64,000 nt of DNA, taken from a virus. Shown one piece after another: positions 367 through 32,095 of the stretch. Each line of letters begins with the position of its first letter. Positions within the stretch are counted from its first letter, which is position 1. Location: positions 32,001 through 96,000 of the IMG/VR virus record IMGVR_UViG_3300017917_005108; one strand, given 5' to 3'. Made by a program: the position numbers and the translations under genes. Under the pieces are notes generated by a model that was not told the origin of the DNA, did no database searches, and saw only the letters and a program-made list of their open reading frames with translations.

Positions 367-2232
367 TTATGGTCCAGTTATTATATAGTCACCGCTATCT
401 GCAATAATAGGATCACTTGCATCTGTTAATAGCTTATCTACTAAAGTAGGTGTAGGAGTGGGTGTAGGCGTAACAGTAGGTGTAGGTGTTGGTGTAGGTG
501 AAGGACCAGGAATTGTTGGAGTAGGTGTAGGAGTTGGTGTGTTTGTAGGTGTAGGAGTAGGTGTAGGTGTGGGTGTGGGTGTAGGTGTTGGTTTTGGAGC
601 AGTAAATCCATTAGTGTCTTTTTCTATTATATTAGTATTAAATAACTGTAACCCTTTTTGAACTAAACTACCTGTTAATGAGTTTAATAGGTTTATACTA
701 AAATCTGGTCCTATATGATGATAGGCGTAATACGTGCCTTTTTCAAATACTAAACTTGAAGGTATGTCAAATACATCAACATAACCAAACAAATCATTAA
801 TATCCTTTACCAAACAATCAAAAACTGAAGTAAATTCAATAGCATTAAAAGTAGATGCAGTCAATGCATTTATATAGGATACTTTTATAGGGTTATAATA
901 TCTGTCTATCCATATTGGTTTAACTTTTGGGTCTAAACTACCAGAAAGCCAAGAGCATAGAAAATCACCAGATGTTTCTTCTAGTGTATTGCCAAAATAA
1001 CTATTTCTTGAATAGTTTCCTTTTTTCTTAAAAATTTTATCACTCTTAAGAGGATGATCACCTGGAATTGCTCCTGCCTCTATTAACCCTGAATCATTTA
1101 TATTAAGTTTTGTAAATGGATAAAATATTTGGGGTATGTGAAAATAAGTAACTTTATCTTTTTTAAGAATTATATTTGAAGTATAACTTTCATATCCAAC
1201 AGTTATATTATCATTTCCTAGTAATTGGTTAGATCCTGTAAACAGTTTTTTATAATCTCTTTGAACAATTCTTTGCTCATTAAAAAATGGGTTATTTCTA
1301 GATTGATAATTTTCAGGTGTATTAGAATTCTTTAAAGATAGTAAATTAATATAAATTTCATTGCCAGAAATAGTAAAATATTCATTATTAAGTAAAAAAT
1401 TATCAAATGCATCATTATAGCTTAAACTTTCATTTATTGGTAAAGAATTATTTTTAAAGTTTTTAAGATATGATACCCAGGGGTCTGAAATATCTGTAAA
1501 GTTAGGCCCATAATTTCTTTTAACACATCTAAAAATAGAATTGTTTGTAAAAGCAGCTTGAGTACCTGTAATGGGATCAACTAAAGTTAATTCATCTAAA
1601 TCAGGATTATAAGTTACATATTTTATAATATCATTTATATTTTTTTGCAATACTATAAAATTATCACCTCTATCATAGTTGTAGATAAAAATTTGAGGTG
1701 AATACTGTCCAAAATTATCTGCATCAATATCTTTACACATGCTTAAATTTCCTGTATAATCAAGTGTTAAAAATCTCTTTACACCGTCATTTTCATGAGC
1801 AATTTTACACAATGCATCAGTTAAAAATACAATTTCAAAAAAGTATCTGTTGTCAATTAAGTCACTTTTACCAGAAACTGCTACATTACAATTAAAAATG
1901 TTTGGTGATGGCTCTGCTGCAACCCAAAATTTAGAAAGCGGTGAAATAAAATCAATAGCGTTTACAGCAAGATAGGTAGAAAACCCCTCATCTGGTAATG
2001 GCTCTAATGGTTCTATCTCTAGAACATCAGATAAAAAATTAGTTTTAGAAAGATATAAATTCGAGTAGTTGTTTGTTGAAGTATCATTAGCATCTTTAAA
2101 AACACTTGCAAATGAAAAATTTATACTGTTTTCAGTATAAATGTTTTGTGTTTTTAAATTTAAAGTTTCGTCTAAATTATACTTGGCTGATAAGGGTATA
2201 AAATTAGTAGATGATAAGCCAAATACTTGCAT
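367..2232 (-). CDS. virion structural protein with C-terminal Pro-Thr linker and acidic tail
   Basis: 621-aa ORF, late promoter 5 nt upstream, PT tract, tail-cluster context. Confidence 0.55.
446..597 (-). repeat. Pro-Thr (CCN-ACN)n coding repeat 1
   Basis: Degenerate hexamers gtaggt/gttggt/gtggga on + strand; ends approximate. Confidence 0.95.
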
Positions 2233-2240
2233 ATTATTAT

Positions 2241-4217
2241 TTAAGAAATAGTTCCATATACAACACCTGCCCCTATATTATTTACAGTAGCAGTATATCC
2301 GTTTAAATTAATTGCTTTGCCTGCAGCGCCACCTTGGCCTCCTCCATTTGAAGCTGATGCTCCATTAATACCTAAATTACCACCATTACCGCCAGGAGCA
2401 GCAGACGCACCAGCAGCGCCTCCTGTAAGATAACTGCCAGGGCTTGAAGCTTCTCCTACACCAGATGCGCAATCTCCTAGCGCCAACCCTTGACCAACAT
2501 TTATTCCAGCGCCACCACCTGAGCGACCACCTCTAATTGCTCCAAATATAATATTAGTTGATCTTCCTCCTCCTCCTGCACCTCCACCGCCACCTATAAT
2601 ACCTGAGTTATTAATTGTTAGATTATAGTTTAAGTTAATTGCATTTCCACCAGAATTGCCATTTAAAAACTCACATACGCCATTGCCACCCTTACCAGCC
2701 ACGACACCATTTGCAGGTGAATTGGTTCCATCAGATACAGCTGGTACTACCAATGTAATATTTGATCCAGCAGGCCAGCTACCGGTATCTAATGCTGCTG
2801 TTCCTGTTGAAGTGCTTCCTATATTTCCTATTACAGTAAATGAAATGTTTACTGGGTTATTGGATGAATCACCGGTTTGAGATTCATAAGATGATCTAAG
2901 ATTTACATTATAAGTAGTTGAGCTAGCGGAACCAATAGTTAGATTACTAGGTGTGTTAGTTGGAGTAGGCGTAGGTGTTGGAGTTGGGGTAGGTGTAGGA
3001 GTGGGAGTTGGTGTGGGGGTAACGCAAATTTGCATTACTGCTGGTAGCCCACCAAAAGGATTAGTAAATCCAGTGGCATTGTTGCAATAGTACACAGTAG
3101 CTCCGGAGCCTAAGTCATTACCAACGCCTAAGCTTGGAGCATTTCCAGAAAAATAAATACCCGATAAGCTATCACAACTACCAAACACAAGATCATCTAC
3201 TAGTGTTACACTACTTGGAATGGTAATATCTTTTAAGAGTTTGCAAACTGAAAATGCATTACCCAGAATAGTAGTTACACTGTTAGGTATATTGACGCTT
3301 GAAAGCCCATAAAGATTCCGGGCAAAACAATAATAATCAAGGGTTGTTACACTGTTTGGAATTGTATAAGCATCTTTTCTGCCAGCAGGGTAAGTCAGCA
3401 AAGTAGTTTGATTTTTGTCAAATAGTACTCCATTGATAGAGCTGTAATTAGGATTAGCAGGGTTTACATTGATGCTTGATAGTGAAGTACAGGATGAAAA
3501 GGTACGGCTGGCTATAGATGCTAGCCCGCTACCTAACTCTACAGATCCAGTAAGAGCAAAACAATACCTAAAAGAACTACTTCCAAAAGTGGTCACATTT
3601 TTAAGGCTAGGAATAGTAACTAGATAAGAACATGAGGTGAAAGCTTGTGAACCTATGTTAGTTACGTTAGAGCCACCCTCTACACTTATTAGACTGCCTT
3701 GATTATAAAACGCATTACTACCAATGCTGGTGACACCAGAGCCAATGACTATATTGGTAAGTGTTTTACTTGTATTGTAACTGTTTGATGTTAATGTGGT
3801 ATCAGAACTCTGTGAGGTAGTATTGTCACTATAAAAGAACACAGTATGTACGGGTGGTAGCGTGGGTGTAGGCGTAGATGTCGGAGTATTTGTTGGTGTA
3901 GGTGTTGGTGTAGGGGTAAATGTTGGAGTGGGAGTGGGAGAAGGTGTTGGTGTATTAGTTGGAGTAGGTGTAGGCGTAGGAGTACCTACTGGTGTAAAAT
4001 TAACTGGTATTGTGTTTAAATCAAATACATAATCTTTATTTGGTTCTAATGAAGTTAAAGTATTAGTAACGCTATTTGGGGTAAAAGTAATTAAACCTGT
4101 TCCAGCAGTATTAGGAGTAATAATTCTATTAATTTTATTTTTATCAGGAAAATTAGGTAAGAAGCATCCTTCTGCTTCTGTGTATTTAGTAATTATTTTA
4201 TTTTTGTTTATATTCAT
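2241..4217 (-). CDS. putative receptor-binding protein: N-module, PT, BspA-type LRR, PT, gp38-like glycine-rich adhesin domain
   Basis: [13 protein letters not shown] repeats; C-terminal [28 protein letters not shown]...GGAAGKAI...VYG resembles T-even gp38. Confidence 0.75.
2949..3020 (-). repeat. Pro-Thr coding repeat 2
   Basis: (PT)n tract; ends approximate. Confidence 0.95.
3861..3996 (-). repeat. Pro-Thr coding repeat 3
   Basis: (PT)n tract; ends approximate. Confidence 0.95.
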
Positions 4218-7200
4218 GGTATATACTCATATGTTACTACATTTCTAGATACGTCACCGCCACCTATTATATAGACTTTTTCTGAGCTGTCCTTTGTTAT
4301 TCCCTCTCCGCCGTAACCACCTTGATTTATTGAGGAGGAAACAAAAGATAAAACAGGCTGATTACCATTTGGGTAAACTGGATAGGTAATGACAATTCCG
4401 CTTGCAAGTGTTGTACTCCCTACAGCAATTAATCTTTTTACCCCGCCATTATTAGTGAAAATAGCATTCGATATACTATATGTAAAATTCAATGGAACGT
4501 TGGCCCAGGTAGCCCCGTTATCATTAGAGCATTTAAAAAACTGTGAGGTTGAGGGAAATTTAGCTAATCCCATAGCAACCCAATTGTTACTTCCATCTGT
4601 TGTAACTACTCTAAAATCAAAATTATCTGTATTAGGATCAGGATCTGGCCAGTCGTTCCATTGTAATTTTGACCAAGAGAGACCATTATCTGTAGATCTA
4701 TAATAAGCTTTGCTTAATCCTACAGCAACCCATACCCCATTACCGTAGTCTATAGATCTTATATCGGTGTTGACAGTACCTACTGATGGTTGAGAGATGG
4801 TAGTCCATGTGGCTCCGTTATCTGTCGATCTATATAATCCTCCATTTTGAACCCATGAAGCTATCCATACCCCATTACCATATTTTGCTACAGATTGATT
4901 GAATACCGTACTTTCAAGTTTTTTACTCCAGTTTAATCCATCAGTAGAGTATAGATATCTTGTATAAGGGCCTGGTGTATTTAAATCATCAAAGCTGCCG
5001 CTCATTATCCACAAACCATTACCATAAGCTATATCAAAAGGCTGAGTATTAATTGGAAGATTAGTCATCTTAGTCCAATTAACACCATCTGTTGATGTTA
5101 GATATTCATTATTGCCTGGGGGAGGTGTATTAAAATTAATAGCTGTGAATCTATTGTTACCATAAGCTACTTTATAAACTGCGCCATTAAAAGGTGCAGG
5201 TAACTTATTGCTATATAAAGTAAATCCAAGATCTCCTGGTATTTGTGTAGACGTTGGGGTAGGTGAAGGTGTTGGAGTAGGAGTAGGTGTAGGGGTAGCA
5301 GTAGGCGTTGGAGTGGGTGTGTTAGTAGGGGCAGGTGTAGGTGATGGTGTAGGAGTAGGTGTAGGTGCAAAAGGATCGTAATTAATTATATAAGGAATAA
5401 CTGATGAGTTAATCAAATAATATCTGCCAGCAGAAAGGTATTGCATAGTGCTAGGTCCACCAGGCTTATAAATTAAGAATGTAGTTCCGTTTAAGTCTGT
5501 CCCAGTAATTCCTATGATGTTACTGTTACCATAATATCCTGGCATGAAAATGTCAGTCTGACTATTGTTGTAAACTATTTGCCAGTATTTGTTGACTTCT
5601 ATGCCCAGAGGGTTAAGAGTGGGAGTAGGCGTAGGTGTAGGAGTAGGGGTAGGAGTGGGTGTAGGAGTGGGTGTAGGAGTAGGGCCTTGACGAGGTCTAG
5701 TATATAAATTGTATATTTTTAATATAGAAGATCCAGTATTTGCAAAAGTAAATGAATATAAGCTTTCTTGTGTAGTACTAATGGTTGCATTAGTTGTTAT
5801 ATAAACAGGATTATTATCTATAGAAGTTTCAGAAAAATTATAGGCAGATAGATAATTTTGAGCATATATAGGCGAATAGTTATTAAAGAAAGAATGATTA
5901 GGGAAGGGCGGTGAAATTAAATCTACATCATAGAATACATTAAACGAGGTAACATTTGTAGCTACTGTTATGTTATAAGACTCAGTAGATTTTACAAATA
6001 TATCTAAGCCATTTTTATCTATATAGTATGTAGATTCTTTAGGCAACACTTGATATGAAATTACATCTGTAGAAAGTAATTTAAAGTTTGTAACATAGTT
6101 AGCAGAATCAGCTTCTGCTACAATCATATTTTTATAGATATCATTGCTCAATCCTATTTTGTTTAGAGCGTTTATATTTTCTACATCATAATAAGATAGA
6201 GGTACGGAAGTAAAAGCAAGGTTAAAAATGTTAAAAACTGAATTTCCATTTATAACAGTTACAGAAGGTGTATAAAGTGTTAGGTTTTCATTTTGAGGAT
6301 AATATTCATGCTTTGGATATACAAACTTTGGATTACCTGGCTGATATCCAAAAGTATTAGAAGCATTAGGGTCTATGTTTGTATAATTAACTATAATTTC
6401 TTTTTCTACATCTAATATTTCAGAACCATCTCCAAAATCATATATAACTTTTAAAGTAGTATAAAAAGAATTATCTATAGCTGAGGGTATAAAAGTTAAA
6501 GTATATGGACCTTTTAAAATTCCTAAATTTATATTTTCTATCGTATTTTGTATTTGATATCCCCATGGAAAAAACAACCCACCATATGTAGATAAAGTAT
6601 ATGCAGATGTTTGACCAAATAAAAATGTTGATGTATAATAGTCGTTTAATACTTCTGCCTGTGAGAGCGCGGTGTTATAAATTTTTACACTTTGCACATT
6701 ACCCTTAAACCCCTCTCCGTTTGTTGGATCATTAGTAGGATCAGCTCTTCCTATTAAAAACGGCGCAGTGTTGGTTGCTGATAATGTTGTTGCAGCTGCA
6801 GAAAAATCTAAATCAAAACCACTAATATTTAAAACTAAATTAGTTGCAACATGTGATTGACTAGGACATAAAAACTTTTTAGATCCGTTTACATAGCACT
6901 GTAATATTTTGCTGGACTGATCTACTACTAATGCAACATGGTTATAACCATTTATAATACAGTTATCAATAGTAGTATGATAGATTGCACTAAGTGGACT
7001 CGGACTAAGCCCTGATCCAATACCAACATAAACATTTTTATTAGCAGTTTGTATTATATATCCAGGGCTAAAAAACCAATGTCCTTTATTTACAACTCTT
7101 TGCAAACTACTTCTTCCTGATGAAAAAATAGCAGTAATAGTAAAGCTGTTTTGTTCAAAATTAAATCTTTTATCATTATCAGCTGATAATACGGAAAGAC

Positions 7201-7510
7201 TACTGTAGAGAGTGTTATTTAAAGAATATACTCCAGTATTACTTGTTCTGTTTAATTTTAAATCATTTGTTTGAGTGGTAGAGGTATCATTAGCTGATAC
7301 CGTACTATATCTTGATTCAGGGTCTTCTGTATCTATTTTTAATACTTGAGGTGTTATGCTTGCAGAAAGAACTGTAAAAACACCGCCATCTACGTTATTT
7401 GGATATGTAAAGGCTGTTCCGTATACAGGATCTAAGAAAAACCAGTGATTTAAGTAATTTGGCTTTCCAGATATTTGATAACTGGACAGTATTACATTAA
7501 GAAAATTCAC
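4214..7510 (-). CDS. virion protein with LamG/ConA-like domain, PT linkers and Asp-box (BNR) beta-propeller
   Basis: NHVALV...YVNG...FKGNVQSVKIYNTALSQAEV (LamG); YRSTDNGATW, YRSTDNGLSW, CSNDNGATW (Asp-box). Confidence 0.75.
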   Translation of the reverse strand: MNFLNVILSSYQISGKPNYLNHWFFLDPVYGTAFTYPNNVDGGVFTVLSASITPQVLKIDTEDPESRYSTVSANDTSTTQTNDLKLNRTSNTGVYSLNNTLYSSLSVLSADNDKRFNFEQNSFTITAIFSSGRSSLQRVVNKGHWFFSPGYIIQTANKNVYVGIGSGLSPSPLSAIYHTTIDNCIINGYNHVALVVDQSSKILQCYVNGSKKFLCPSQSHVATNLVLNISGFDLDFSAAATTLSATNTAPFLIGRADPTNDPTNGEGFKGNVQSVKIYNTALSQAEVLNDYYTSTFLFGQTSAYTLSTYGGLFFPWGYQIQNTIENINLGILKGPYTLTFIPSAIDNSFYTTLKVIYDFGDGSEILDVEKEIIVNYTNIDPNASNTFGYQPGNPKFVYPKHEYYPQNENLTLYTPSVTVINGNSVFNIFNLAFTSVPLSYYDVENINALNKIGLSNDIYKNMIVAEADSANYVTNFKLLSTDVISYQVLPKESTYYIDKNGLDIFVKSTESYNITVATNVTSFNVFYDVDLISPPFPNHSFFNNYSPIYAQNYLSAYNFSETSIDNNPVYITTNATISTTQESLYSFTFANTGSSILKIYNLYTRPRQGPTPTPTPTPTPTPTPTPTPTPTLNPLGIEVNKYWQIVYNNSQTDIFMPGYYGNSNIIGITGTDLNGTTFLIYKPGGPSTMQYLSAGRYYLINSSVIPYIINYDPFAPTPTPTPSPTPAPTNTPTPTPTATPTPTPTPTPSPTPTSTQIPGDLGFTLYSNKLPAPFNGAVYKVAYGNNRFTAINFNTPPPGNNEYLTSTDGVNWTKMTNLPINTQPFDIAYGNGLWIMSGSFDDLNTPGPYTRYLYSTDGLNWSKKLESTVFNQSVAKYGNGVWIASWVQNGGLYRSTDNGATWTTISQPSVGTVNTDIRSIDYGNGVWVAVGLSKAYYRSTDNGLSWSKLQWNDWPDPDPNTDNFDFRVVTTDGSNNWVAMGLAKFPSTSQFFKCSNDNGATWANVPLNFTYSISNAIFTNNGGVKRLIAVGSTTLASGIVITYPVYPNGNQPVLSFVSSSINQGGYGGEGITKDSSEKVYIIGGGDVSRNVVTYEYIP
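5252..5367 (-). repeat. Pro-Thr coding repeat 4
   Basis: (PT)n tract; ends approximate. Confidence 0.95.
5618..5685 (-). repeat. Pro-Thr coding repeat 5
   Basis: (PT)n tract; ends approximate. Confidence 0.95.
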
Positions 7511-7562
7511 TTAATTATTTAATTTTATATTATATTATCCAATATATAAATACATCTTTATG

Positions 7563-9125
7563 TTACTGTAACAATGCAAAGCTTTCTAAAGCTCCAGCTT
7601 GAGCTGCTGACCAGCTACCAGATATCTGACTAAATGCACCTCTTGTTGTTGTATCACCCAGTCCTAATTGACCGTATTCATTATATCCTGTTCCTAGTAA
7701 TACAGTACTATTAGCTGATAATCCTATTGTATGACCTAATCCAGCTCCTACAAATTGAGACCAGGTACCTGTCATTGATGTAAATGTTGTATAATTTGTA
7801 AAGGAACTAAACCCTAGCTGGCCTAAATTATTAGCTCCAGTACCGAATAGTTTATAATAACTACCGTTTGCAGATATACCTATAGTGAATGCACTGCCAG
7901 TGCTTACAAGAGTTGAAGATGAAATTACATGTACAACAGTAAATGTTGTTCTATCTGTAGTATCTCCTACACCCAACTGACCCCTATTATTACTGCCAGT
8001 CCCATACCACCTACAATTTGCAAAAGGTGTACCAGAGGATAGAGCAAGAGTATGGTTATAGCCAGGTGATATACTATCCCAATTTCCAGGTAGTCTATTA
8101 AACCCATTTCTACTAATTCTATCTCCTAACCCGAGTTGACCTGATAAGTTATTTCCTGTGGTAAACCATACACTATTAGGTGTAGCTGATTGTGCAAATA
8201 CATAATTATCACCTGCAAGTACTGTATTCCAACTACCTGTTAGCTGAACAAAGGTATTAGATGTTGCGGGTATATTAGCTTGCAAACTAGTCAAAGTACC
8301 AGCTGCAAACATAGTATTTGTACCAGCAGAAATAGCTACTGTAAATGCACCTGCTGGAGCTATATAATCCCAGTTTCCATTTACAATAGTATAAGTTGAT
8401 TTGTTAGTGTTGTCACCTACACCTAACTGACCTTCTGTATTTCTACCCGCAGCATACCACGTAGTGGTGCCTGTACTTCTAGCAAACGTATATAGATATG
8501 TATTGCTCTTTGTAGATTTAAATATGTCAAAGTTTCCTGGTACATTACCAAATGAATTCATTTGACTACCTGTACCGGATTCACCGTAAATATTAGATCC
8601 TGCTCTTCTAATTATATAAGTTGGTACTGTAGGTGTAGGCGTGGGTGTATTAGAAGGTGTGGGTGAAGGTGTTGGTGTGTTGGTAGGTGTAGGTGTGGGT
8701 GTATTAGTAGGTGTATTAGTTGGGGTAGGCGTAGGTGTATTGGTAGGTGTTGGTGAAGGCGTAATAGTGGGTGTATTGGTAGGTGTCGGTGTAGGTGTAA
8801 TTGTAGGCGTCGGTGTAGGAGTATTTGTAGTAAAGATTGTAGGTGTGGGAGTCGGAGAAGGAGTTGGTGTGGGAGTTGGAGTTGGTGTGGGACAAATAAT
8901 AGTATAGGGAACTGTATTAGAAATAAACAAATAGTCTGTATTTGGAAAAACGTGATTTAAGGTATTTAAAGAACTTAATGGGTTGTATGTTAATAGATAA
9001 TTTCCAGTTGAACCTATTCCTATTATCTTATTGATATTCAAACGACTAGGAAAAGCTGATAGGGGTATAGGTGTAGATGTTGTACACCCTAGATTAACAA
9101 ATTCATATATGTTAGAAATTGTCAT
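7563..9125 (-). CDS. RCC1/BLIP-II-repeat beta-propeller protein with N-module and PT linker
   Basis: Five GxNxxGQLG motifs ([45 protein letters not shown]). Confidence 0.8.
8621..8892 (-). repeat. Pro-Thr coding repeat 6 (longest, ~90 codons)
   Basis: (PT)n with PTNT units; ends approximate. Confidence 0.95.
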
Positions 9126-9139
9126 TTATTATTATATAT

Positions 9140-12100
9140 TTATAACACCTGAACAGAGCCAGGTGCAAATATCCCTTCATAATTAGTTTGTGTATTAAAC
9201 TTAAAGTATGTAAATTTTTGACCTAGATATATTGGATCAAAGTTTACAGTAGCAACAAAAGCATTATTAATATAGATATCCATTGTTAATGGTAAATCAG
9301 TTGGATACTTGTTATCATAGGAAAGAATATCGCTTTGATACAATGAAGCAAATGAAACACCATAATAGCCTACAACGCCTCCGGAGATCGGTATCTGTAT
9401 AGAGGAATCAAATGTAGTAGGCTCTACAGGAGTACTATAATCATTATTAAAGTAGCCATTAATATTGAAGTTTTTAATTTTTAATGTAGCAGCTGTTAGA
9501 CCAGAGCTATATGATAAACAAGGTCTAACTGCGTTAGGCGTTAAATCACCAAAATTATAATCAAGATAGGTAGAAAAATCTCTAGCACTTAATTCTTTTT
9601 GTTGAACTATAACTCTTTTACCTAAATCACAAAATCTAATTCTTATTCTTCTATATACAGGCAAATCTGTACCAGTTATTTGTTGATAAATTGAAATTGG
9701 ATTGTCAAAGCTAGATAAAGAGTTAGTTCTTGTTATAACTTGATAGTTATCATAAAATCCGCCTCTTAATGTTATAGAGTTTGATACGCTTGTAGGTAAT
9801 CCAGTTACACCATAACTTGAAGTGCCAAAATTACCAGTTGAGTCAAAGCCTATACCTAAGATACCACTATAAAGACCGTTATAATTTATAAATGCTGCGC
9901 CACCTGTTGAATTAGTACTCAAGTAATTAGCGTTTGTATAATTCAACCCATATCCTGGTGCGCCACCACTTACTATAGGTGTGTAACCTATTAAAGATAC
10001 ACAGAATCCTTCTCCTGCTTGTGTTGTTGAACCGTAGAAAGCATAATCAAAAGTAATTACTATATCTTTTCTTGTATCAAAACCGCTTGTGCTATAAATT
10101 AGAGTGCTTTTTGCACTTACAGGTAACGTATAAAAGCCTGTTGGGTAAATTGTCATGGTTGTAGTGGCTGAACCAGAATAATTACCGTTCACCGAAACAG
10201 CACTTACTGTATAAGAACCTGTTTCAATTGGAGTGACAAAACTACCTGAAGAAAGATAATAGGTTAACAACCCTACACCGGGATAAGAAGGTGAAAACGC
10301 TGACACGCTCTTTGGACTACCTGTATAAACAAAGCTGGTATTTGTAAATTGTATAAAATTAGAAATGTCTAATCTTGTTAGTGTAATATCAAATAAAGCT
10401 GTTGCAGGAGCAAAAACTGTAGTGGATAAAGAGCTTACTAAAACTGTTATTGTACCTGTACCAGATAAAGCAGAAACTGTTGGACTTAAAGTCTTACCAG
10501 GACCACTTAGAACTGTATAAAATGTTTGTAATCTGTTACCCAGGTATGATGCAGTTGCTGATAAGTCTAGGGTTTGTGTGTATTGAAGTGTTGCAGGCAG
10601 AGAAGGCTGAACTATAGATATTTTAGGAACAGGCTGGCTTACAGTATTGTTGGGTTCATCAGGGTATAAGACGACTCCCTGAGTAGACATGTGTGTATAC
10701 TGCTGATTGGAATAACTGGATCTGCCAGTTTTGTTGTTTGTATAATCATAAATGTAAGCGCCACCTGCGCACAGTGAGTAAAATAATGCATCTATAGATT
10801 CTGAATCTAGTAAATTGTTGTTTACATATGCTTCATAGGAAATTTTTGTAGAAGTAAGAACATTTATTGATGTTAAATTATTGTACTCGCAATGAATATA
10901 CTCTAACCCGGTGAGTGGTGTTAAATCTAATGTTGAAATGTTATTGTCTTGAATTTGAAGGTTGGTTATGTTTTTGCTGTAGTTTAAATTAATTGTAGAA
11001 AGATAATTTGTAAATGCTTGAAAATATATAAGAGACGAAAAAGCAGATAAATTGATACTGCTTAGCTGATTAGTATTAGCTGTAAACTCTGTTATACCGG
11101 AACATTTATGCAAAACGGTGAAATTGTTAATTTCTCTTAAACGGTTATTACTAATATTAACTGATGAAAGATTTACAGAGCCAGTAAAATCAAAAGACGT
11201 CAGTCCATTGTTATTGAGGCTTAGATAGGCTAGATTAGGGAGATTAGACAACGTAATGCTGTTAGCGTCTCCGCCTCCAAATACCAGATAGTTTAATACA
11301 GGGTAATTGGAAAAGTTAATAGATGAGATGTTATGATAATAAACATTTATTCGTTCCATTGTGCCTGGTAATGTTGGCAGCGATGTTAAGTTAGTATAAT
11401 AAAGAAAAATGCTTGATAAAACAGTACAATTTGTAAAATCAATAGAGTTTATAGGTCCATAATAATATATTTGATTTAAATTGTAGCAGTTAGAAAAATC
11501 TACAAATTTATTTGAAGATTGTATGCTGAGAAAATAGAAATAATTTAACTGTGGGTTGTTTTTTATATTAATGTTTTTTAATGGAGAGCCATCCATATAA
11601 ATGGTTTTTAAAACAGGAGCACCAGTCAGAGTGAATGCGCTCAACGAATTGTTGTATCTAGTAAAGAAAAAACTATCAAATGTTATAGAAGTTAAACTAG
11701 CAAAATAGTTGTTTTCAGTTTTAACTGCAGAAAGGTGCACATTTCCTGTAAAAACTAAAGTATCTATACTGCTTAGACCTTTAGTTAAATCTATTTCAGG
11801 GGCAGAAGTTCTGCAGTTAAAATATTTTAATGCACTCAATCCAGCTAGCTGCACAGATGATAGACTGTATGAATTAAGTGTTAATGATATTAAATTGTTT
11901 AGTGTATTGTAATTAAAGGAAGTGATAAAACGTGAGTTAGTAAACGCAATATTTTCTAAATTGTTAGGTATTGCAGGTAGAATTAAAGATCTTAGATTAG
12001 ATGTGGCTCCTAAGTCTAAAAATTTGAGGGCTGACAGACTTGATATATCTAATGAAGACAGGGATTGGCTATTAAAGAGGTTTAAAGCTGTTAGAGAGTC

Positions 12101-13246
12101 TGCTAAATTATCTAAATTTAGTGAAGTCAGGGAACAATTTAATGCTGATAAATTTCTAAGCTTAAAAGAAGATGGGTAGTTATTAAAATTTATTTCAGTT
12201 ATAGGATTACAAGATACATCAAGTGTTTCAAGTGCAGATAATGCTGATAGACCTATAATAATGTTTAAAGAACTTAAAGAACCAACAGGAGAAGAAAAAT
12301 AATTATAGCCGCCTACATCTAAATACTGTAATGCTGTTAGACCTGTTACATTAAGTGATGTCAGAGGATTGGTATTCAGATACAAGTATTGTAGAGCAGG
12401 TAAATTTATTAGAACAGGATCAGTAATTAAGTTACCATTTGTTAATCCAAGATTATAGTAAGTAATTGGATCGTACCCACGGCGATCACCGAGGTGTAAA
12501 TAACTCAAAGTAGGTATGTTTTGTAATACAAAAGAAGTTAGCTGGTTGTTATTACAGAAAAGATATCGCAAACTGCTCAAAGGCCCAGTAAAATTAAATG
12601 AGCTTAATCTACTAGTGTAATTGGAATAGATGTTATGAGGCCCTAGATTTAAAGATGCAATACCACTAAGAGCTCTGGTATCAGATAGTGTAAAGTCTAA
12701 TACTTTTAATGGTGTTCTACCTATATCTAATGAAAATAAGCTACAATTATTAAATTTAAATGCACTAAGATAAGAGCTGTCTAGATTAAGGTAAGATAAT
12801 TTAGTACCACTTAAATTAACATACTGATATGATCCATTGCGTATGTCTAGACTAAAGAGGTTTTGTAGTCCTATAACTCTGATGCCTGATATACCGCCTG
12901 TCCATGTGTAGAAATTATATAAAGAAGCATTTTCCCTTAGATCTGCTTCAAACAATGTATTGTTCCCTGCTCCATGAAATGTCACCAGGTTAGGAAATAA
13001 TCTGAAATCTAAATATGTAAGAGACTGCTGAAATGGTAGTTCATAAAGTCCGCTGTATAAATCTGTTACTAAAGCCAATCTAGGTGAAGTGTTTTCAATG
13101 TAAAGTGTATTGTTACCGACGTTTAAGCCTTCTTTTTGCACATAATAATCAGTGCCAGAGAGTAAAGGAGGGTATGGTACAAAAAAAGCAGATATACTAC
13201 TTGTTTGATTGTTATTGCTTGCGGTTGCTGCTCTTACCCATGCCAT
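9140..13246 (-). CDS. large LRR protein with MBG/Ig-like and L-type lectin-like domains (putative fibre/adhesin)
   Basis: LxxLxLxxNxLxxL repeats; YTGSPKSV...GSYTVSAV...NYSGS (MBG-like); GEGFCVSL...GGAPGYGL...LGIGFDSTGNF (lectin-like). Confidence 0.7.
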   Translation of the reverse strand: MAWVRAATASNNNQTSSISAFFVPYPPLLSGTDYYVQKEGLNVGNNTLYIENTSPRLALVTDLYSGLYELPFQQSLTYLDFRLFPNLVTFHGAGNNTLFEADLRENASLYNFYTWTGGISGIRVIGLQNLFSLDIRNGSYQYVNLSGTKLSYLNLDSSYLSAFKFNNCSLFSLDIGRTPLKVLDFTLSDTRALSGIASLNLGPHNIYSNYTSRLSSFNFTGPLSSLRYLFCNNNQLTSFVLQNIPTLSYLHLGDRRGYDPITYYNLGLTNGNLITDPVLINLPALQYLYLNTNPLTSLNVTGLTALQYLDVGGYNYFSSPVGSLSSLNIIIGLSALSALETLDVSCNPITEINFNNYPSSFKLRNLSALNCSLTSLNLDNLADSLTALNLFNSQSLSSLDISSLSALKFLDLGATSNLRSLILPAIPNNLENIAFTNSRFITSFNYNTLNNLISLTLNSYSLSSVQLAGLSALKYFNCRTSAPEIDLTKGLSSIDTLVFTGNVHLSAVKTENNYFASLTSITFDSFFFTRYNNSLSAFTLTGAPVLKTIYMDGSPLKNINIKNNPQLNYFYFLSIQSSNKFVDFSNCYNLNQIYYYGPINSIDFTNCTVLSSIFLYYTNLTSLPTLPGTMERINVYYHNISSINFSNYPVLNYLVFGGGDANSITLSNLPNLAYLSLNNNGLTSFDFTGSVNLSSVNISNNRLREINNFTVLHKCSGITEFTANTNQLSSINLSAFSSLIYFQAFTNYLSTINLNYSKNITNLQIQDNNISTLDLTPLTGLEYIHCEYNNLTSINVLTSTKISYEAYVNNNLLDSESIDALFYSLCAGGAYIYDYTNNKTGRSSYSNQQYTHMSTQGVVLYPDEPNNTVSQPVPKISIVQPSLPATLQYTQTLDLSATASYLGNRLQTFYTVLSGPGKTLSPTVSALSGTGTITVLVSSLSTTVFAPATALFDITLTRLDISNFIQFTNTSFVYTGSPKSVSAFSPSYPGVGLLTYYLSSGSFVTPIETGSYTVSAVSVNGNYSGSATTTMTIYPTGFYTLPVSAKSTLIYSTSGFDTRKDIVITFDYAFYGSTTQAGEGFCVSLIGYTPIVSGGAPGYGLNYTNANYLSTNSTGGAAFINYNGLYSGILGIGFDSTGNFGTSSYGVTGLPTSVSNSITLRGGFYDNYQVITRTNSLSSFDNPISIYQQITGTDLPVYRRIRIRFCDLGKRVIVQQKELSARDFSTYLDYNFGDLTPNAVRPCLSYSSGLTAATLKIKNFNINGYFNNDYSTPVEPTTFDSSIQIPISGGVVGYYGVSFASLYQSDILSYDNKYPTDLPLTMDIYINNAFVATVNFDPIYLGQKFTYFKFNTQTNYEGIFAPGSVQVL

Positions 13247-13252
13247 AAAAAA

Positions 13253-16200
13253 TTAGAAAGTTAGTTCTCCTCCGGTTAGAGTTGGCGTATCACCTATTAC
13301 AACAAAAGTGCTGTAATTTAATAAATTAGTTGGATTACTAAAATTGTTGTGTATTGTTCCTATATTTGGTCTATACATACTACTTTGTATATTAGTTAAT
13401 ATACCGTTAAAGTATTTAAAGTCTGTTACAAATGCATAAAACATATTAGTTGTATCTTTGGCAAGATAGGTAATACTATATATATTTGTTTCAGAATTTA
13501 AAGTCATAATAGGCTTGTCTATAGTAATAATATCAATGTTCTGGTTAGTACCTGTTAGACTAAACTGTACTACGTCAAGATAGTTTACATCTGCAAGCTT
13601 TTTGTAAGGGTAGAGCTGTACTAAACTAAATGTGTTTAAATTTAAAGAATATATAACAGGATATATTGATTTAAAGTTTGAAGCACTAGCTATAGGGTGT
13701 AGTGTTGTTTTTGCAAAAATAAGTTCATTATTCTTTTCATCAAACCAAACAGTGGAAAACTTTTCAAATTCTTTATTAATACCTCTTTCTACATAGGTTT
13801 CGTTATTAGAAGGTGTCCTGACATTATTAGTGGAATAATTAAAATCAATTTTATCAAAAATTAAATGATTTTCTGTTTCAACTTGTAATGTATCATAATA
13901 TACATCAAAATTAATAACACAGTTATTAACCTCTTCTCTTATATGTTGAGGGTATTTTATAAAAATGCTTGAAAGTGCAGAAGAAACTGGTTCTATTAGA
14001 GAAGAATTAGAATTTCTCATATAAAAATCTCCATATGTAGAATATCTAGTATTGTAAATAGAAACTTTACCTGAGGAGCCTGTTAAAGTAGGTACATATT
14101 CAGTTTCTCTATTTTGTAGTCTGATATTAAAGAAATTACTAGGTAATGTAAAATCAGGCTCCTGTGTAAATTGATCATTACAGGGAGTAAATTGATCGGT
14201 AAAACTACTTACAACAAAATAATAACCTAGATATTGTGGTAAAGCAGAAGCTGGGGGTTCAAATGTAAATGAAGCTGCATATGCAAATGTGGGTCTATAA
14301 TCAGGTGCAATAGGATTAGCTCCTGCATCTACAAGCTCATCATAAAAAGTTGGTGTTACATTAGGTACAAATGAGGGGTTATCAGTGCAGGGATCAACTA
14401 ATAAAGTTCCATTTGGTGAGATAAAAGAAAATCCGTCTTTAACATAGCAAATAATTGTAGTTTTAACTATTTCTGAACAAAATCTTTCTGGTTGAAATGC
14501 ATAGGATGCAATGTTATAAGGTGAACCAGAAAGAGCAAATTCTGGTATACCGTCTGTGTACTGTGTTGCTGAAAGCGGTGATATTGCAGTAAGAGATCCA
14601 GAATAAACAAAATAACCTGATCCTGGAGGATAGTTATTAGTTGTTCTTAATATAACACCAGAATAATTTTTTAAAGCATTAATTTCTGTATAATCAAAAT
14701 TAAATCCTGATACAACATCATAAAAAACATGTCCATCTATTATTAAACAATCTTTATCTGTTAAAAGACTACCACTATTTGAGTATGCAGATAAAATACC
14801 GGAAGTGTTTTTAAAGTCACCAGTAATTTTGTATAAACCATAATCATTACCATAGACATCTGATTTAAATTGAACTAATGTTTTGTTAAGTGAAAGTAAT
14901 TTTTCAAGTCTTAAATCTATTGGGTATTGGTTAACAGGGTGGAGAGGATATATATCATCATTTGCCCAAGTATCTTTTTTATAATTTTTAAAAAATTCTT
15001 GAGGGTCTATATATCTAGATAATCCTTGATTAGAAAATGTTATGCTTTGCTCTCTGCTTTGATATCCTCTAAAAGTATGTAATAGAGGGTCACTTTTAAC
15101 ATCGCCGAATTTATAGCCGTTTGTATAATCTATTTGAGTAAAGCTATTATCTTCTATAAAAATTAAGGGTGACTCTTGATCTTGCTGTGTATTACCTGAG
15201 ATATTTCCAAATTTACTTGGATCTGGAAAAATATAAACAGTGTTGGGTGTTAAAGTAGAAACACTTACTGTTGAAGTAAAATTAAAATTATAAAAATTAA
15301 GTAGCCCTAATTTATCTGGTTTAAAAAACAATCCTTGTGCTTTTGGTGTTTTTAAAAGACTTTCTTCGGGTACAAATGCTACAGTTGGAGAAGTTTTATT
15401 TAAATAGTTTGCAAATGGGCTCTCTGCTTTAAATAAAATACCAGAGGTAATATTTGTAACTGTATTTCCGGTTGATACATAATAAAAATCTGTACCCATG
15501 TATTTTTTTGTAACTTCTTTAAGTAAGCTTAGCCTTAAATTATTTTGACTATTATTGTTTATATTATTAATAAAGTCTCTATCTTTAAGAAAGTTTAATT
15601 GGGTTGAATTAATTGTTGGTGTAATAGAGAAATTATTTGTACCTAATTCAACTAAAAAGAATGGGTAGCTTGTGATTGCATTTACTATAGATTTGTCAAA
15701 ATTTAAATAATAATTTGCATCTATATCTAGTAAATTAAGAACAAATTCAGTATTTCGTAATCCTGTTGCCCCGTAGGCTGATGCGGGTAAAGTACCTAAA
15801 TCAAAATAGCTAGAATTATTATCATATAGTTCTTCTAACTCTACTATTATGTTATTTCTTACTGCAGAGGGAGTAATATTTAGAGTTTGAATTAGTTCAG
15901 TTAAATCTTGTGCTTCTAAACTTTTTGATATTTCATTGTAGATTAGTTTTTCTACGCCGTATATACTACCCTTTAGGTTATACTCAACAGCGCTAAACTT
16001 TGCTTTATCACGTAAAGTAGAGAAATATATACAAATATCCTTTATTTTTTTAGCAAAAAATGGAACTGCAATAGCTAAGTCTCTAGGGCTGTTTTTATCT
16101 ATATTTTGTAAGAATCTTCTTTCATCAATAGATGAATAATTTAAAACTATTTCTGTTATAAAGTCTTTATATAATTCGGTAATAGCATCAGAAGATGCTT

Positions 16201-16411
16201 GAGGCGCATAATCTTTAGCTTCAAACCAATTATTAAGATAATTGTTATATCTTTGAAATAATTCTTCTGTACTTAGGGATAAGGTACCGTTATATTTTAA
16301 CCAGTCTATAAATGATATAGGTGTTGTTCTATCAATTGGAAATTCAACTAATGTGTCTTTAGTAATAGAATTATCTAATTTTTCATCTACAAATCTATTA
16401 ACATCTGGCAT
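13253..16411 (-). CDS. putative baseplate-associated structural protein
   Basis: 1052 aa, downstream of gp25/gp6, YNLKGSIYGVE resembles wedge (gp7-like) motif; late promoter. Confidence 0.5.
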   Translation of the reverse strand: MPDVNRFVDEKLDNSITKDTLVEFPIDRTTPISFIDWLKYNGTLSLSTEELFQRYNNYLNNWFEAKDYAPQASSDAITELYKDFITEIVLNYSSIDERRFLQNIDKNSPRDLAIAVPFFAKKIKDICIYFSTLRDKAKFSAVEYNLKGSIYGVEKLIYNEISKSLEAQDLTELIQTLNITPSAVRNNIIVELEELYDNNSSYFDLGTLPASAYGATGLRNTEFVLNLLDIDANYYLNFDKSIVNAITSYPFFLVELGTNNFSITPTINSTQLNFLKDRDFINNINNNSQNNLRLSLLKEVTKKYMGTDFYYVSTGNTVTNITSGILFKAESPFANYLNKTSPTVAFVPEESLLKTPKAQGLFFKPDKLGLLNFYNFNFTSTVSVSTLTPNTVYIFPDPSKFGNISGNTQQDQESPLIFIEDNSFTQIDYTNGYKFGDVKSDPLLHTFRGYQSREQSITFSNQGLSRYIDPQEFFKNYKKDTWANDDIYPLHPVNQYPIDLRLEKLLSLNKTLVQFKSDVYGNDYGLYKITGDFKNTSGILSAYSNSGSLLTDKDCLIIDGHVFYDVVSGFNFDYTEINALKNYSGVILRTTNNYPPGSGYFVYSGSLTAISPLSATQYTDGIPEFALSGSPYNIASYAFQPERFCSEIVKTTIICYVKDGFSFISPNGTLLVDPCTDNPSFVPNVTPTFYDELVDAGANPIAPDYRPTFAYAASFTFEPPASALPQYLGYYFVVSSFTDQFTPCNDQFTQEPDFTLPSNFFNIRLQNRETEYVPTLTGSSGKVSIYNTRYSTYGDFYMRNSNSSLIEPVSSALSSIFIKYPQHIREEVNNCVINFDVYYDTLQVETENHLIFDKIDFNYSTNNVRTPSNNETYVERGINKEFEKFSTVWFDEKNNELIFAKTTLHPIASASNFKSIYPVIYSLNLNTFSLVQLYPYKKLADVNYLDVVQFSLTGTNQNIDIITIDKPIMTLNSETNIYSITYLAKDTTNMFYAFVTDFKYFNGILTNIQSSMYRPNIGTIHNNFSNPTNLLNYSTFVVIGDTPTLTGGELTF

Positions 16412-16419
16412 TGAATTAT

Positions 16420-19400
16420 TTAATTATTGTATACAATATCAACAGTATTAGTAAATAGCTTTAAGCCTTTAGTTAGCTCATAACTTAAAATATTTTGCAT
16501 GATTCCGTTATTCTTTGACCAGTCTTTATAAGAGCTTAATGTGGGAGACAGTAGATTAATTGGGTCATTCCAATTTAAAATATTGTTATAGAAAGAGTTT
16601 TCAGTAATATCATTAAATTGATAGAAGGAATAATAATTTTTAATATTTATACCAGTAAGACTCTTAGGCGCTACTAAGCCCCAGCCCCAGTCATACGTGT
16701 ATGAACTTAAAGGTAATATATCTCCTAAATTATAGCCTTTGATATTAGATGTGTTTACTATTGTATAAAGGTCAGAGAAGAGCTCTAAAGCTACTATAGA
16801 TTTTCCAGAAATAATAGTACCTGACAATACATTTATTTGATTGCCTAAATTTATTCCATATTTTGAGCTATTAATATATCCTTTTTTATCAAAATTTCTA
16901 TTAAACGTATTTCTATCACCCCAAAGTATTTTGTGTTTTATTGATAAAAGATCTACAAGTCTTCTTAATTGAGGTGGAAAGGGATAATTATATTCCTCAA
17001 ACTGTAGACTTAACTCATCGCAAAAAGATAGAAGTTTATCTAAATTGCATTTATCTATATCTGAGTTGTTGGAAACAAAGTTTGCTGTTTTTTCATATAC
17101 TACTTTTCCCAACTCATAAGGTTGAGCACTAATGCTGCCTACTATTGTGCTTAAAAAATTATCAAAAAACATTTTTTTATTAAAAAGAACTTCTTGATAT
17201 CTTAAATCTTTATAAAAATTACCAGCATCAAAATCTTCATTTATTTTTGTAACGTTATATTTACCGGTAGAAGGATATACGTTAAAAAGCGCAGACTCGC
17301 CAGATAGATATCTTGTAACATTAAAAGGAACCATATATTTGTTAATCCATCTTGATCCAATCCAATCACCGTAGGCCTGGAATATTCTTTCTTGGAAAGC
17401 AGATACGGGATTAGATGTTGAATCTGGAGGAAACTCTAAAGTAATACTGTCAACACCTGCAATAGAAGACATGCTTTCGTTAGTAGTGTCAACATAATAC
17501 AATTTGTTTTCAAAATTGTTTATTACCCAAAGATAATTTGCAGTATCACATGCAATACCACCTATACTACCTATATAGTTTGTTGTGTTAACACCGGAAC
17601 CGCCAGGAAAAGAAGTAACTTTTTGAGGATTATTTGCATCTAGCTTTATTATTGTTTCTCTATCATTAACAACATAAGCATTTTGTGCACCATCAACAGT
17701 TATATTGCCTGCTAGTCTAAACCCTGTAAGAGGATATCCTGTGAGAAGGTTACCGTCTTTATCAAACTTATATACAAAATCATTTTTACCTGTTAAAGAA
17801 ACAGAAGGTGAAACAGGATAATTCATATTTAAAGTAGTAAGCCATACATAATTGTTTCTATCAACACAAATTTCTACCGGGGATATTAAACTTGGAAATG
17901 GTATTACTTTTATAAAATTACCTGTATCATCAAATTTAAATAAAAAGTTTGATATTGGATGTGTATAAGCAACCCATATATTATTTTGTGTATCGGTATC
18001 TATAGATGCAGGTAGTAAAGTATTTTCACCAGCAAATCCACTTAGGGGAGCTAAATTGTAATCAGAACTTAAAGCATACACCAGATTTTTATACATAGGT
18101 ACAGCAACAGATTTTGCTTGTCCTGTATATCTATCAATTTTTATTGATGAGACTGCATCAAAAAGTGTAAACCATACATCGCTATTACCGTCCATAACAA
18201 TACTCGCAGGAGCAGCGCTAGATAGTTCTGTTGATCTAAGATCAACATAGTAGGTAGAGTTGTATCCTGAAAAAGGATATGAAGATAAATTAAATGCAGA
18301 GAGAATTCCGCCGTAAATATCAATTTTATAAATTTTATCTGCTTGTCCGTCTGCTACCCATGTTCTATAGTCTTCACCAAACCCTGCTCCAGATGGTGCA
18401 ACTTGAAATGAATAGCTTTCAACACTTCCAGGTGTATCATAATCTGATACATAGGCTGAAAGAAACTCTTCCATTGTACCATCACAGTAATTAAAGTTTC
18501 TAGTTTTAAAAATACGTTTTACCTTGAAGTATTGTGGCATAGATACCCATCCTACTAAACTATCTTTAGGAAAGTTTACCGGGTCAACAACAGTCATGCC
18601 AGCAGTTAATAATAAATTCTCACTGCTAATATGAGGAATAAAATATCCTTTATAAAATCCACCAATGCTTCTTGGTATATCAACAGAAAAATCACTATAA
18701 AAGCTTACTGCAGATATACAGGTGCGAGTTAAGTCATTATTTTGCTTTACTAAGCTTATGGCTAAATCATAAGAAGTGACATTTTGCGCAAGAGTTTCAA
18801 TTGTAGATGATGATAGAGGTGGATATGTTTTTGTAGTATAATTTTCAAAATCTTTCATTCTAATAACAAAAGGTATCTCAGTATACTGCCAACTAATTTC
18901 AGGAATGTTAAAGTTAGTTGCTGACAAAGCACCTTCGCCATCAATACCATTGGAAGTAATGCTCAGTCTACCTGCAGAATTATGTCTAACTTTAATAATA
19001 GGTAGACATGCGGGGTCTAGTTGCTGAAAACCGTAAGGCGGATATCCAACGTAGTCTTGTATGCTAGTAACCATGGAGTATGCATCTTTAAATTTTGCAT
19101 TGTCAAAAGTAGCAAAAATTAAAATTGGCGGTTCTCTTGTAGTGTAATTTTTTGTTCTATCATCAACATAATAAAATTCTGCATATCCGGTGGTACCGGC
19201 AAACCTAGATCCAGTGTCATTCTCTTGACACTGTTGAATATTGTTATTAACTATGTTTGCGTATATTTTTGTATCTTTTGTTATCACTTTATCAACTATT
19301 ACAAATTCATCAAAATCTCCTATTTTTTGAACTTCATAAAGTCGTGACAAACTTCTTAAATGACTCCATTTGTCTCTAATAAAAGAATTATAATCAATAT

Positions 19401-19893
19401 AGTCTCCAGCTGCTCCAGAAGCATAAAGATTTAATGTATATCCTTCTGCACTTAAAGCTCTATAGGACTGCCAACTATTTTGACGTTGTATTGTGAGAGG
19501 CTCTATAATTCTACTAGCTGGTACGTCATATATAAAACGTTTAAAATCTTTGAACCCTAATTTATCTGCAACAAAGTCGTAAATTGCAATGGTTGGTTGA
19601 TAACTAGAATCGTATGCATTACCATAGCTGTCAAATATAACAAGCTTCGGTTTATAAAAACCGGGGAATTTATAATGATGAGTAGCTGTTAAATCGTTTG
19701 AGTAAGTTCCATCACCAAAATGCCATTCAATTTTTTTATTACTAATAACTGTAGATCCGGTTAATAATGGAGAAGAAGTAAAATCAGGAATAAAAGTTAT
19801 AGGTGTTATATCAAGAGAATATGAAGAAAGGGTATTATTTCCTGAGTAATCTCTAGTATAAAAATAGAGATATGTGTAGTTTAAAGATTCCAT
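16420..19893 (-). CDS. putative baseplate wedge protein (PKD-like + beta-propeller + P2-I/gp7-like region)
   Basis: WHFGDG...HHYKFPG (PKD); DxxxNIWV propeller repeats; coupled to gp6 by TAATG. Confidence 0.55.
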   Translation of the reverse strand: MESLNYTYLYFYTRDYSGNNTLSSYSLDITPITFIPDFTSSPLLTGSTVISNKKIEWHFGDGTYSNDLTATHHYKFPGFYKPKLVIFDSYGNAYDSSYQPTIAIYDFVADKLGFKDFKRFIYDVPASRIIEPLTIQRQNSWQSYRALSAEGYTLNLYASGAAGDYIDYNSFIRDKWSHLRSLSRLYEVQKIGDFDEFVIVDKVITKDTKIYANIVNNNIQQCQENDTGSRFAGTTGYAEFYYVDDRTKNYTTREPPILIFATFDNAKFKDAYSMVTSIQDYVGYPPYGFQQLDPACLPIIKVRHNSAGRLSITSNGIDGEGALSATNFNIPEISWQYTEIPFVIRMKDFENYTTKTYPPLSSSTIETLAQNVTSYDLAISLVKQNNDLTRTCISAVSFYSDFSVDIPRSIGGFYKGYFIPHISSENLLLTAGMTVVDPVNFPKDSLVGWVSMPQYFKVKRIFKTRNFNYCDGTMEEFLSAYVSDYDTPGSVESYSFQVAPSGAGFGEDYRTWVADGQADKIYKIDIYGGILSAFNLSSYPFSGYNSTYYVDLRSTELSSAAPASIVMDGNSDVWFTLFDAVSSIKIDRYTGQAKSVAVPMYKNLVYALSSDYNLAPLSGFAGENTLLPASIDTDTQNNIWVAYTHPISNFLFKFDDTGNFIKVIPFPSLISPVEICVDRNNYVWLTTLNMNYPVSPSVSLTGKNDFVYKFDKDGNLLTGYPLTGFRLAGNITVDGAQNAYVVNDRETIIKLDANNPQKVTSFPGGSGVNTTNYIGSIGGIACDTANYLWVINNFENKLYYVDTTNESMSSIAGVDSITLEFPPDSTSNPVSAFQERIFQAYGDWIGSRWINKYMVPFNVTRYLSGESALFNVYPSTGKYNVTKINEDFDAGNFYKDLRYQEVLFNKKMFFDNFLSTIVGSISAQPYELGKVVYEKTANFVSNNSDIDKCNLDKLLSFCDELSLQFEEYNYPFPPQLRRLVDLLSIKHKILWGDRNTFNRNFDKKGYINSSKYGINLGNQINVLSGTIISGKSIVALELFSDLYTIVNTSNIKGYNLGDILPLSSYTYDWGWGLVAPKSLTGINIKNYYSFYQFNDITENSFYNNILNWNDPINLLSPTLSSYKDWSKNNGIMQNILSYELTKGLKLFTNTVDIVYNN

Positions 19894-22295: not shown

Positions 22296-22898
22296 ATGGA
22301 AAAGAAGTTTGTTAAGCTATATGAAACAACATTAAGCAGATACAATAGAGGAGGCTTTCTTACTAGCGATAGAGTTAAGTTTATTGATAATGTTTTACGT
22401 AACGATTTCTTTAAAAACCAACCAGACTCTGTAAGAGATGCTGTAAAAGGGTTAATTGATTCAGGTCTTAACTTAAGAGTTAAGAACGTAAAATCATATT
22501 TTCCTACAGCTATGGGTGCTGGTAATACTGATTATAATGGATATAGCTATACAGTAGAAATAGTGCCTGAAATAGCTCCTGGAAGATTTGATGTTAATAA
22601 GACTGTAGTAGTCCCTGCAAGCTTACTAACACATCAAAATGATGGTGTAAATCTACCTCCTGTACCTGATCAATTTAAATATAACAACAACGTTAAAATT
22701 AAGCCTGAAGAGCCTGAGATAGCTGACACAAAAAATTATTTAACACCTAAACAACAAACACATAATTCTGATGTAAATGGTAAAATGGTACCAGGTGATA
22801 GAGAGTTGGGCGATAAAAATGTAAAAATTCCTTCCTCACCTGCTGAAGGTCAAAAAGACCCTGCTGCTTATACAGCAATGTATTTACCTAAAAACTGA
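22296..22898 (+). CDS. late hypothetical protein (candidate head/internal protein)
   Basis: Start revised to ATG 22296, 5 nt after TAAATA (22285-22290). Confidence 0.6.
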   Translation: MEKKFVKLYETTLSRYNRGGFLTSDRVKFIDNVLRNDFFKNQPDSVRDAVKGLIDSGLNLRVKNVKSYFPTAMGAGNTDYNGYSYTVEIVPEIAPGRFDVNKTVVVPASLLTHQNDGVNLPPVPDQFKYNNNVKIKPEEPEIADTKNYLTPKQQTHNSDVNGKMVPGDRELGDKNVKIPSSPAEGQKDPAAYTAMYLPKN

Positions 22899-24298: not shown

Positions 24299-24304
24299 AC
24301 CACT

Positions 24305-24332
24305 ATAATAAGATAAGTTTATAAAAAATCAA
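24305..24332 (-). promoter_or_regulatory. sigma70-like promoter TTGATT-N16-TATTAT, ATG 6 nt downstream
   Basis: Read directly; same geometry as nine other sites. Confidence 0.7.
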
Positions 24333-24349
24333 TTGTAATAAGTAATAAT

Positions 24350-28416: not shown

Positions 28417-28441
28417 AGAAGTATTTATAAGTAAATTATTA

Positions 28442-29884: not shown

Positions 29885-29894
29885 ACATTAATAT

Positions 29895-32066: not shown

Positions 32067-32095
32067 ATTAATACTTATAAAGAAGTATTAAGTTA

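Follow-up and report, generated by a model that had tools for sequence, protein, structure and literature searches.

A β-rich module shared by three Pro-Thr-tethered, adhesin-like proteins of an uncultured T4-like myovirus: a candidate attachment hub

The locus

Three adjacent minus-strand genes in the genome of an uncultured T4-like myovirus encode proteins that have one small domain of about 75 residues in common (here called the module), behind which each protein carries a Pro-Thr tract and a putative binding head of its own. The genes lie in a window of 64,000 nucleotides, i.e., bases 32001-96000 of the 162.5-kb virus record IMGVR_UViG_3300017917_005108 from IMG/VR (31% G+C, rated 77% complete). 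They encode proteins of 520 residues (window positions 7563-9125), 1098 residues (4214-7510) and 658 residues (2241-4217); these coordinates were taken from the list of open reading frames (ORFs) and confirmed. All segments of the three proteins described below are given in window positions and lie on the minus strand.

Three copies of one domain

An earlier, sequence-only reading of the window had placed a homologous segment in each of the three proteins, and all three were found where it put them. The first copy, M1 (3987-4217), comprises residues 1-77 of the 658-residue protein. The second, M2 (5369-5617), is internal and corresponds to residues 632-714 of the 1098-residue protein. M3 (8892-9125) begins at Met1 and spans residues 1-78 of the 520-residue protein, whose ORF starts immediately after a stop codon. 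An independent hidden Markov model (HMM) of 64 environmental domains of the family, from which the window copies and their close relatives were left out, was run on 646 ORFs from a six-frame translation of the whole 162.5-kb record and returned M1, M3 and M2 with E-values of 9e-21, 1e-18 and 4e-6, respectively. The match of M2, the most diverged of the three, is full-length (HMM positions 2-74), and the next ORF of the genome follows at an E-value of 0.033 only, leaving exactly three copies. In pairwise Smith-Waterman comparisons, z-scores against shuffled sequences were 13.6 (M1-M3), 5.9 (M1-M2) and 5.3 (M2-M3), and none of 2000 shuffles reached the observed scores. The three segments are thus copies of one homologous domain.

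Stalks and binding heads

A Pro-Thr tract directly follows every module and each module is joined to a different head, as had been proposed and as tract mapping and domain scores confirm. The simplest case is the 520-residue protein, which consists of module, Pro-Thr tract and propeller only: a stalk of about 91 residues (residues 79-169; 8619-8891) leads into an RCC1-type β-propeller (7566-8618), which is recognized by the Pfam families RCC1 (50 bits; cutoff 21.7), RCC1_2 (27.2 bits; cutoff 22) and WD40_RLD (E-value 2e-38), and by phrog_7220. In the 658-residue protein, a stalk of about 42 residues (residues 78-119; 3861-3986) carries a BspA-type leucine-rich-repeat (LRR) head (3024-3860), assigned by Pfam LRR_5 with 114.7 bits (E-value 3.3e-33; gathering cutoff 27.7). 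A second Pro-Thr tract (2946-3023) connects this head to a glycine-rich, gp38-like adhesin domain at the C-terminus (2244-2945), which scores 27.1 bits with Pfam GP38 (cutoff 25; profile positions 31-215 of 218) and matches the families phrog_11439 (tail fiber, E-value 1e-18) and phrog_2056 (host specificity, 4e-10).

The 1098-residue protein is more complex. Its module is preceded by a Pro-Thr tract (residues 609-631; 5618-5686) and followed by a stalk of about 41 residues (residues 715-755; 5246-5368), which ends in a probable Asp-box (BNR/sortilin-like) β-propeller (4217-5245). The N-terminal 608 residues (5687-7510) comprise a conserved 45-residue N-terminus, a LamG lectin-like insert (Laminin_G_3, 35 bits in Pfam) and a conserved region at about residues 300-494. 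Among the heads that the sequence-only reading had named, the LRR, gp38-like and RCC1 domains pass their Pfam cutoffs, whereas the Asp-box propeller remains below them (Sortilin-Vps10, 28 bits, E-value 1.3e-6, cutoff 33; BNR, 16.7 bits, cutoff 27) and is backed by five visible SxDxGxxW motifs. The only other (PT)7 tract of the genome occurs outside the window, in a 117-residue ORF at genome positions 153985-154335 (plus strand).

A rare domain family with a predicted β-rich fold

Searched as a profile against 1.84 billion representative proteins, the three copies recovered a rare family of 41 clusters at E ≤ 1e-3, including 7 at E ≤ 1e-10. All clusters stem from metagenomes or from contigs of metagenome-assembled genomes, and nearly all have one to four members. 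One of them, the eukaryotic FN3-repeat protein P0014, is probably a spurious match. The three modules have no Pfam match even at E ≤ 10 and no PHROG match at E ≤ 1, and a sequence profile search of the PDB gave no match (best E-value 0.068). Likewise, no match was found among 50,697 GenBank phage records, either by tblastn with M3, M1 and a tandem pair or by megablast with the whole region. IMG/VR searches with the family alignment A1, P0003 and P0009 yielded no further loci, P0050 had no match among metagenome contigs and P0007 matched one contig of 1.2 kb only, and GTDB genomes gave no match to P0042 or P0019. A degenerate DNA pattern for the motif FISNTVPY produced 7 chance matches, none of which codes for the module. 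So far, the family is found in uncultured phages only, mostly large ones.

AlphaFold2 predicts a mostly β fold for M3 from an alignment of 24 sequences, with a mean per-residue confidence (pLDDT) of 93.2 and a predicted template modelling score (pTM) of 0.81. The model contains four β-strands of at least three residues besides shorter strand segments; helices of four or more residues are absent. Fold searches returned no clear relative: the best E-values with Foldseek were 0.7 and 0.13 against the PDB and 0.33 against BFVD, and the best Z-scores of VIA-align against 48,161 representative chains were 4.2-5.0 (HPr, RCK_C), with 4.2 lying under the level that the tool itself regards as meaningful. 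Named clusters of the ESM Atlas gave no usable match. The view of the module as a real, common and independently folding unit is supported; it is what stays constant in proteins that have Pro-Thr stalks and heads of a presumably monomeric type but are not otherwise related. It represents an undescribed domain family with a confidently predicted β-rich fold, to which no structural relative can be assigned.

Architecture across the family

In 36 of the 41 clusters the module aligns from Met1 and begins no later than residue 12, either as a single copy (16 clusters) or as a tandem pair (20 clusters); it is internal in the other five, namely M2 and four more. Of 43 proteins, 25 have a tract rich in Pro, Thr or Ser behind the last module; this set combines the 41 clusters with three additional members of clusters and the two remaining copies of the window, after removal of three proteins that lack a full module match. 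The spacing between tandem modules is 10-16 residues in 21 of 22 pairs, and the spacer is never a Pro-Thr tract. Heads of the relatives include RCC1 and Asp-box/PSII_BNR propellers, FGE-sulfatase/C-type-lectin-like domains, a right-handed β-helix (Beta_helix) and many that could not be assigned. In the internal cases a head lies on each side of the module and Pro-Thr tracts form the joints. P0031, for example, has an Asp-box head that is homologous to that of the window protein (E-value 2e-34) and lies N-terminal of the module, and in P0030 an FGE-like head and a Pro-Thr tract precede the tandem modules. With heads on either side, the module appears as the fixed point and the heads as its cargo. 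The module of P0004, a close environmental relative of the 520-residue protein, shares 90% identity with M3; between this module and its RCC1 head, P0004 carries an extra domain of about 170 residues and a second Pro-Thr tract, which directly demonstrates domain insertion and shuffling at the Pro-Thr joints.

Relatives were also located in three IMG/VR records (65-180 kb), amid genes for structural proteins of the virion. Three virus records were searched in full; they stand for two independent lineages only, since G001 and G002 are related, and each encodes exactly three modules, however these are split among genes. In the genome of the window, each of three genes carries one module, while in G001 and G002 (the latter rated 100% complete) one gene holds a single diverged N-terminal copy and the next gene a tandem pair. 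In related phages, the genes that lie upstream of those for tandem modules (L004:276-1352, L005:5105-6403 and L006:8170-9246) each start with such a diverged module, which has two insertions; before this copy was added to the model, it scored E-values of 1e-5 to 2e-4. Beyond the module, these genes encode another domain, then a Pro-Thr tract and, at the C-terminus, a domain of about 90 residues.

For the tandem protein P0007 (223 residues), AlphaFold2 returned both modules with a pLDDT of about 90 and an overall pTM of 0.71. That this pTM is reached despite about 50 disordered residues suggests that the model packs the two modules in a fixed arrangement. Taken together, the regular tandem spacing, the predicted packing and the recurrent number of three modules suggest that modules may associate with one another.

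Genomic setting

The source genome is that of a T4-like myovirus, with genes for a tail sheath, a large terminase, a clamp loader, a DnaB-like helicase and a family-B polymerase; the best terminase match, from Sinorhizobium phage phiM9, shares 40% identity only. Upstream of the minus-strand block lies a gene for a gp6-like baseplate wedge subunit (window positions 19893-21755). It is followed by three large minus-strand ORFs, one with PKD domains (16420-19893), one at 13253-16411 and one with LRR and MBG domains (9140-13246), and then by the three module genes and a minus-strand ORF for a 621-residue protein (367-2232). The block is tightly packed: the 1098-residue gene ends in a stop codon that overlaps with the start codon of the 658-residue gene (4214-4217), and the other intergenic gaps of 8-52 nucleotides fit a single operon.

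The module genes thus come after the gp6-like wedge gene and before further fibre-type genes, which lie just left of the window (L003:8568-18356, i.e., genome positions 22568-32356). The latter encode a 188-residue tail fibre protein (phrog_24210), an NHL-repeat protein and two Mtd_N proteins, one of them with a Peptidase_S74 intramolecular chaperone. Beyond them follow genes for a UDP-glucose dehydrogenase-like protein and a glycosyltransferase, and an island of glycosyltransferase and radical SAM genes adjoins the module genes. This layout resembles a hypervariable block of pelagimyophages and cyanomyophages, their host recognition cluster, which is situated after baseplate genes and combines putative lectin-like receptor-binding proteins (RBPs) with glycosyltransferase and radical SAM genes (PMC7029224). 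The terms “linker”, “RCC1” and “PT repeat” were not retrieved from that paper, which therefore appears not to describe the module or Pro-Thr-tethered heads (PMC7029224). Literature searches for phage fibres with Pro-Thr linkers or RCC1 heads returned nothing relevant.

A putative attachment hub and its alternatives

The reading that we favor, and to which we give an even chance, is that the module serves as an attachment hub that fixes the tethered heads to the virion, that its copies associate, and that the three proteins form one multi-headed adhesin cluster. In this model, the module would hold the heads at the virion, probably at the periphery of the baseplate, a location proposed because the genes directly follow baseplate wedge genes. 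Flexible Pro-Thr stalks of 40-90 residues would tie interchangeable heads to the module, and the module copies would probably bind one another, which would unite the three proteins in a single, flexibly tethered cluster. The earlier notion of flexible tethered binders fits both the stalks and the heads, which are of a presumably monomeric type. Several features point to a role in attachment or assembly: the module is the only part common to these proteins, internal modules bear heads at both ends, and the genes follow baseplate genes. Moreover, its extreme N-terminal position is that of RBP anchors, and phage RBPs have been described as combining a conserved N-terminal adapter with a variable distal domain (PMC12692247). 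Features of this adapter class recur here: M1 and M3 start at Met1, most clusters of the family have the module within their first 12 residues, and the same module is common to proteins with RCC1, Asp-box, LRR_5 plus GP38, FGE-sulfatase and Beta_helix domains. That the three proteins are attached to the virion at all, we infer from the position of their genes.

Some points weigh against this model. The constant count of three covers two lineages only, and the packing of tandem modules is an indirect inference from pTM. Other observations speak against a strict phage-anchor role: P0034 contains four partial module copies, P0042 has a signal-peptide-like N-terminus, and the structural neighbours in the ESM Atlas (TM-scores of 0.7-0.78) are unnamed parts of bacterial secreted multidomain proteins. 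These three observations also favor a serious, if unlikely, rival explanation, in which the module is no assembly element but a small domain for ligand binding or spacing, similar to Ig, FN3 or carbohydrate-binding modules (CBMs), that adds avidity or reach while something else holds the proteins on the virion. The module is small and β-rich and occurs in tandem or, rarely, as multiple partial copies, and its weak profile matches to the eukaryotic FN3 repeats of P0014 and to PDB fibronectin (E-value 1.9) reflect a common LxPNxxY strand motif. However, the extreme N-terminal bias in 36 of 41 clusters would be unusual for accessory binding modules, none of the fold searches matched the module to an Ig, FN3 or CBM domain with a Z-score above 5, and the number of modules per record is constant at three. 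Nor do the three proteins contain another conserved candidate anchor, apart from the 45-residue N-terminus of the 1098-residue protein.

The sequence-only reading had free adhesins plug onto a virion-anchored copy of the module. In a strict form of this model, the 1098-residue protein would be anchored to the virion by its own N-terminal region, and M1 and M3 would plug homotypically onto its internal M2. The first 45 residues (7376-7510) are 49-69% identical to the N-termini of six environmental proteins that lack the module and carry different C-terminal heads (P0051-P0056), with the LamG domain (about residues 46-300) inserted behind this stretch, and residues 276-494 also recur in module-less proteins with other heads (legume-lectin, RCC1). 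The 1098-residue protein may therefore possess its own anchor, and its N-terminus is a candidate second anchor family. The greater divergence of M2 would be expected of a copy with a distinct role, and the predicted packing of tandem modules and the three modules per record would suit such docking as well. A known analogue is found in Klebsiella podophages, where RBP1 has a branching domain to which a docking peptide of RBP2 binds (PMC13352976). In related phages, however, the three modules are split one plus two (G001, G002), and the tandem is N-terminal in L004 and L006, so that an anchored internal copy is not obvious, and the LamG-containing N-terminal 608 residues may simply provide more heads. 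We consider this model rather improbable. A different arrangement, in which three modules from two or three polypeptides form a hetero-oligomeric, pseudo-threefold knob that is plugged into the baseplate, seems to us still less probable. Least credible, and in our view very improbable, is the possibility that the module receives a docking peptide on a Pro-Thr tether, namely the C-terminal 25 residues of the neighbouring 621-residue protein (370-444). The ORF of this protein ends in a 49-residue Pro-Thr tract and the 25-residue peptide (370-591, minus strand), the only such terminus in the genome; the peptide is of the type LL.D..D.II.D.GD.I, its gene adjoins the module genes, and peptides of comparable pattern, placed after Ser-rich or Pro-Thr linkers, terminate the tandem-module proteins P0007, P0010, P0017, P0024, P0033 and P0043. 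The likeness among these termini is weak and short, however, and in the AlphaFold2 model of P0007 the C-terminal peptide has a pLDDT below 50 and forms no strand pairs, so that docking is not predicted. A comparison of the N-terminal parts of the 621-residue and 1098-residue proteins revealed no homology.

Comparison with known systems

Known phage proteins that anchor or branch receptor-binding appendages include the N-terminus of T7 gp17, the dual RBPs of KP32, KP34 and K11, and the T4 gp10-like branching domains of Ackermannviridae tailspikes. This anchor-branch organization is the nearest known kind to the arrangement described here, which realizes it on a new domain family. Similar to the described systems, a conserved N-terminal unit is combined with differing distal parts, RBP genes lie side by side, and one RBP is possibly docked on another (PMC12692247; PMC13352976). 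The differences are nevertheless considerable: the searches gave no sequence or fold match between the module and the domains of these systems, a disordered Pro-Thr stalk replaces the trimeric shaft, the heads (propellers, LRR) are of monomeric type instead of trimeric spikes, and the module can be internal, with heads on both sides. For T4 gp10-like/XD branching domains in particular, there was no Pfam or PHROG match, and they are not among the fold-search results, the best of which were HPr and RCK_C.

The sequence-only reading had called the array cellulosome-like, a comparison that holds as an analogy only. Dockerins (PF00404) consist of about 70 residues with a duplicated Ca-binding F-hand loop-helix motif and are mainly helical, and cohesins (PF00963) form a nine-stranded β-sandwich of about 140-150 residues. 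With no Pfam match to either family, the module is not a dockerin, given its mostly β model, nor, at half the size, a cohesin by sequence and length. Cohesins are absent from the fold-search lists, and one ESM Atlas neighbour cluster has a Cohesin domain in 13% of its members. What is shared with the cellulosome is the plug-and-play logic of a small common module, a Pro-Thr linker and varied functional domains. In contrast to the cellulosome, the array does not include a separate scaffoldin that bears receptor modules in repeat, and any association here would be homotypic. A further comparison concerns the gp38 of T-even phages (PF05268), a separate adhesin protein on the tip of the rigid, trimeric gp37 fibre. 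The C-terminus of the 658-residue protein resembles it in passing the GP38 cutoff and in matching tail-fibre host-specificity PHROGs, but is fused via a Pro-Thr tract behind an LRR head and an N-terminal module.

Implications

How the large uncultured myoviruses that infect aquatic bacteria recognize their hosts has hardly been characterized. The new domain family marks appendage proteins that are unlike rigid trimeric fibres, with heads of monomeric type, flexible stalks and a common module. If the modules did form a knob in the baseplate, this would be a new type of appendage, in which monomeric lectin-like heads sit on long, possibly glycosylated Pro-Thr tethers that emanate from a fold without known relative. 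If the module is an attachment hub, its HMM would provide a handle to find receptor-binding proteins in metagenomic phages, and the module itself would be a natural plug-and-play junction. It would then also offer a testable case of a hetero-oligomeric, branch-like RBP assembly beyond the Klebsiella and Ackermannviridae models.

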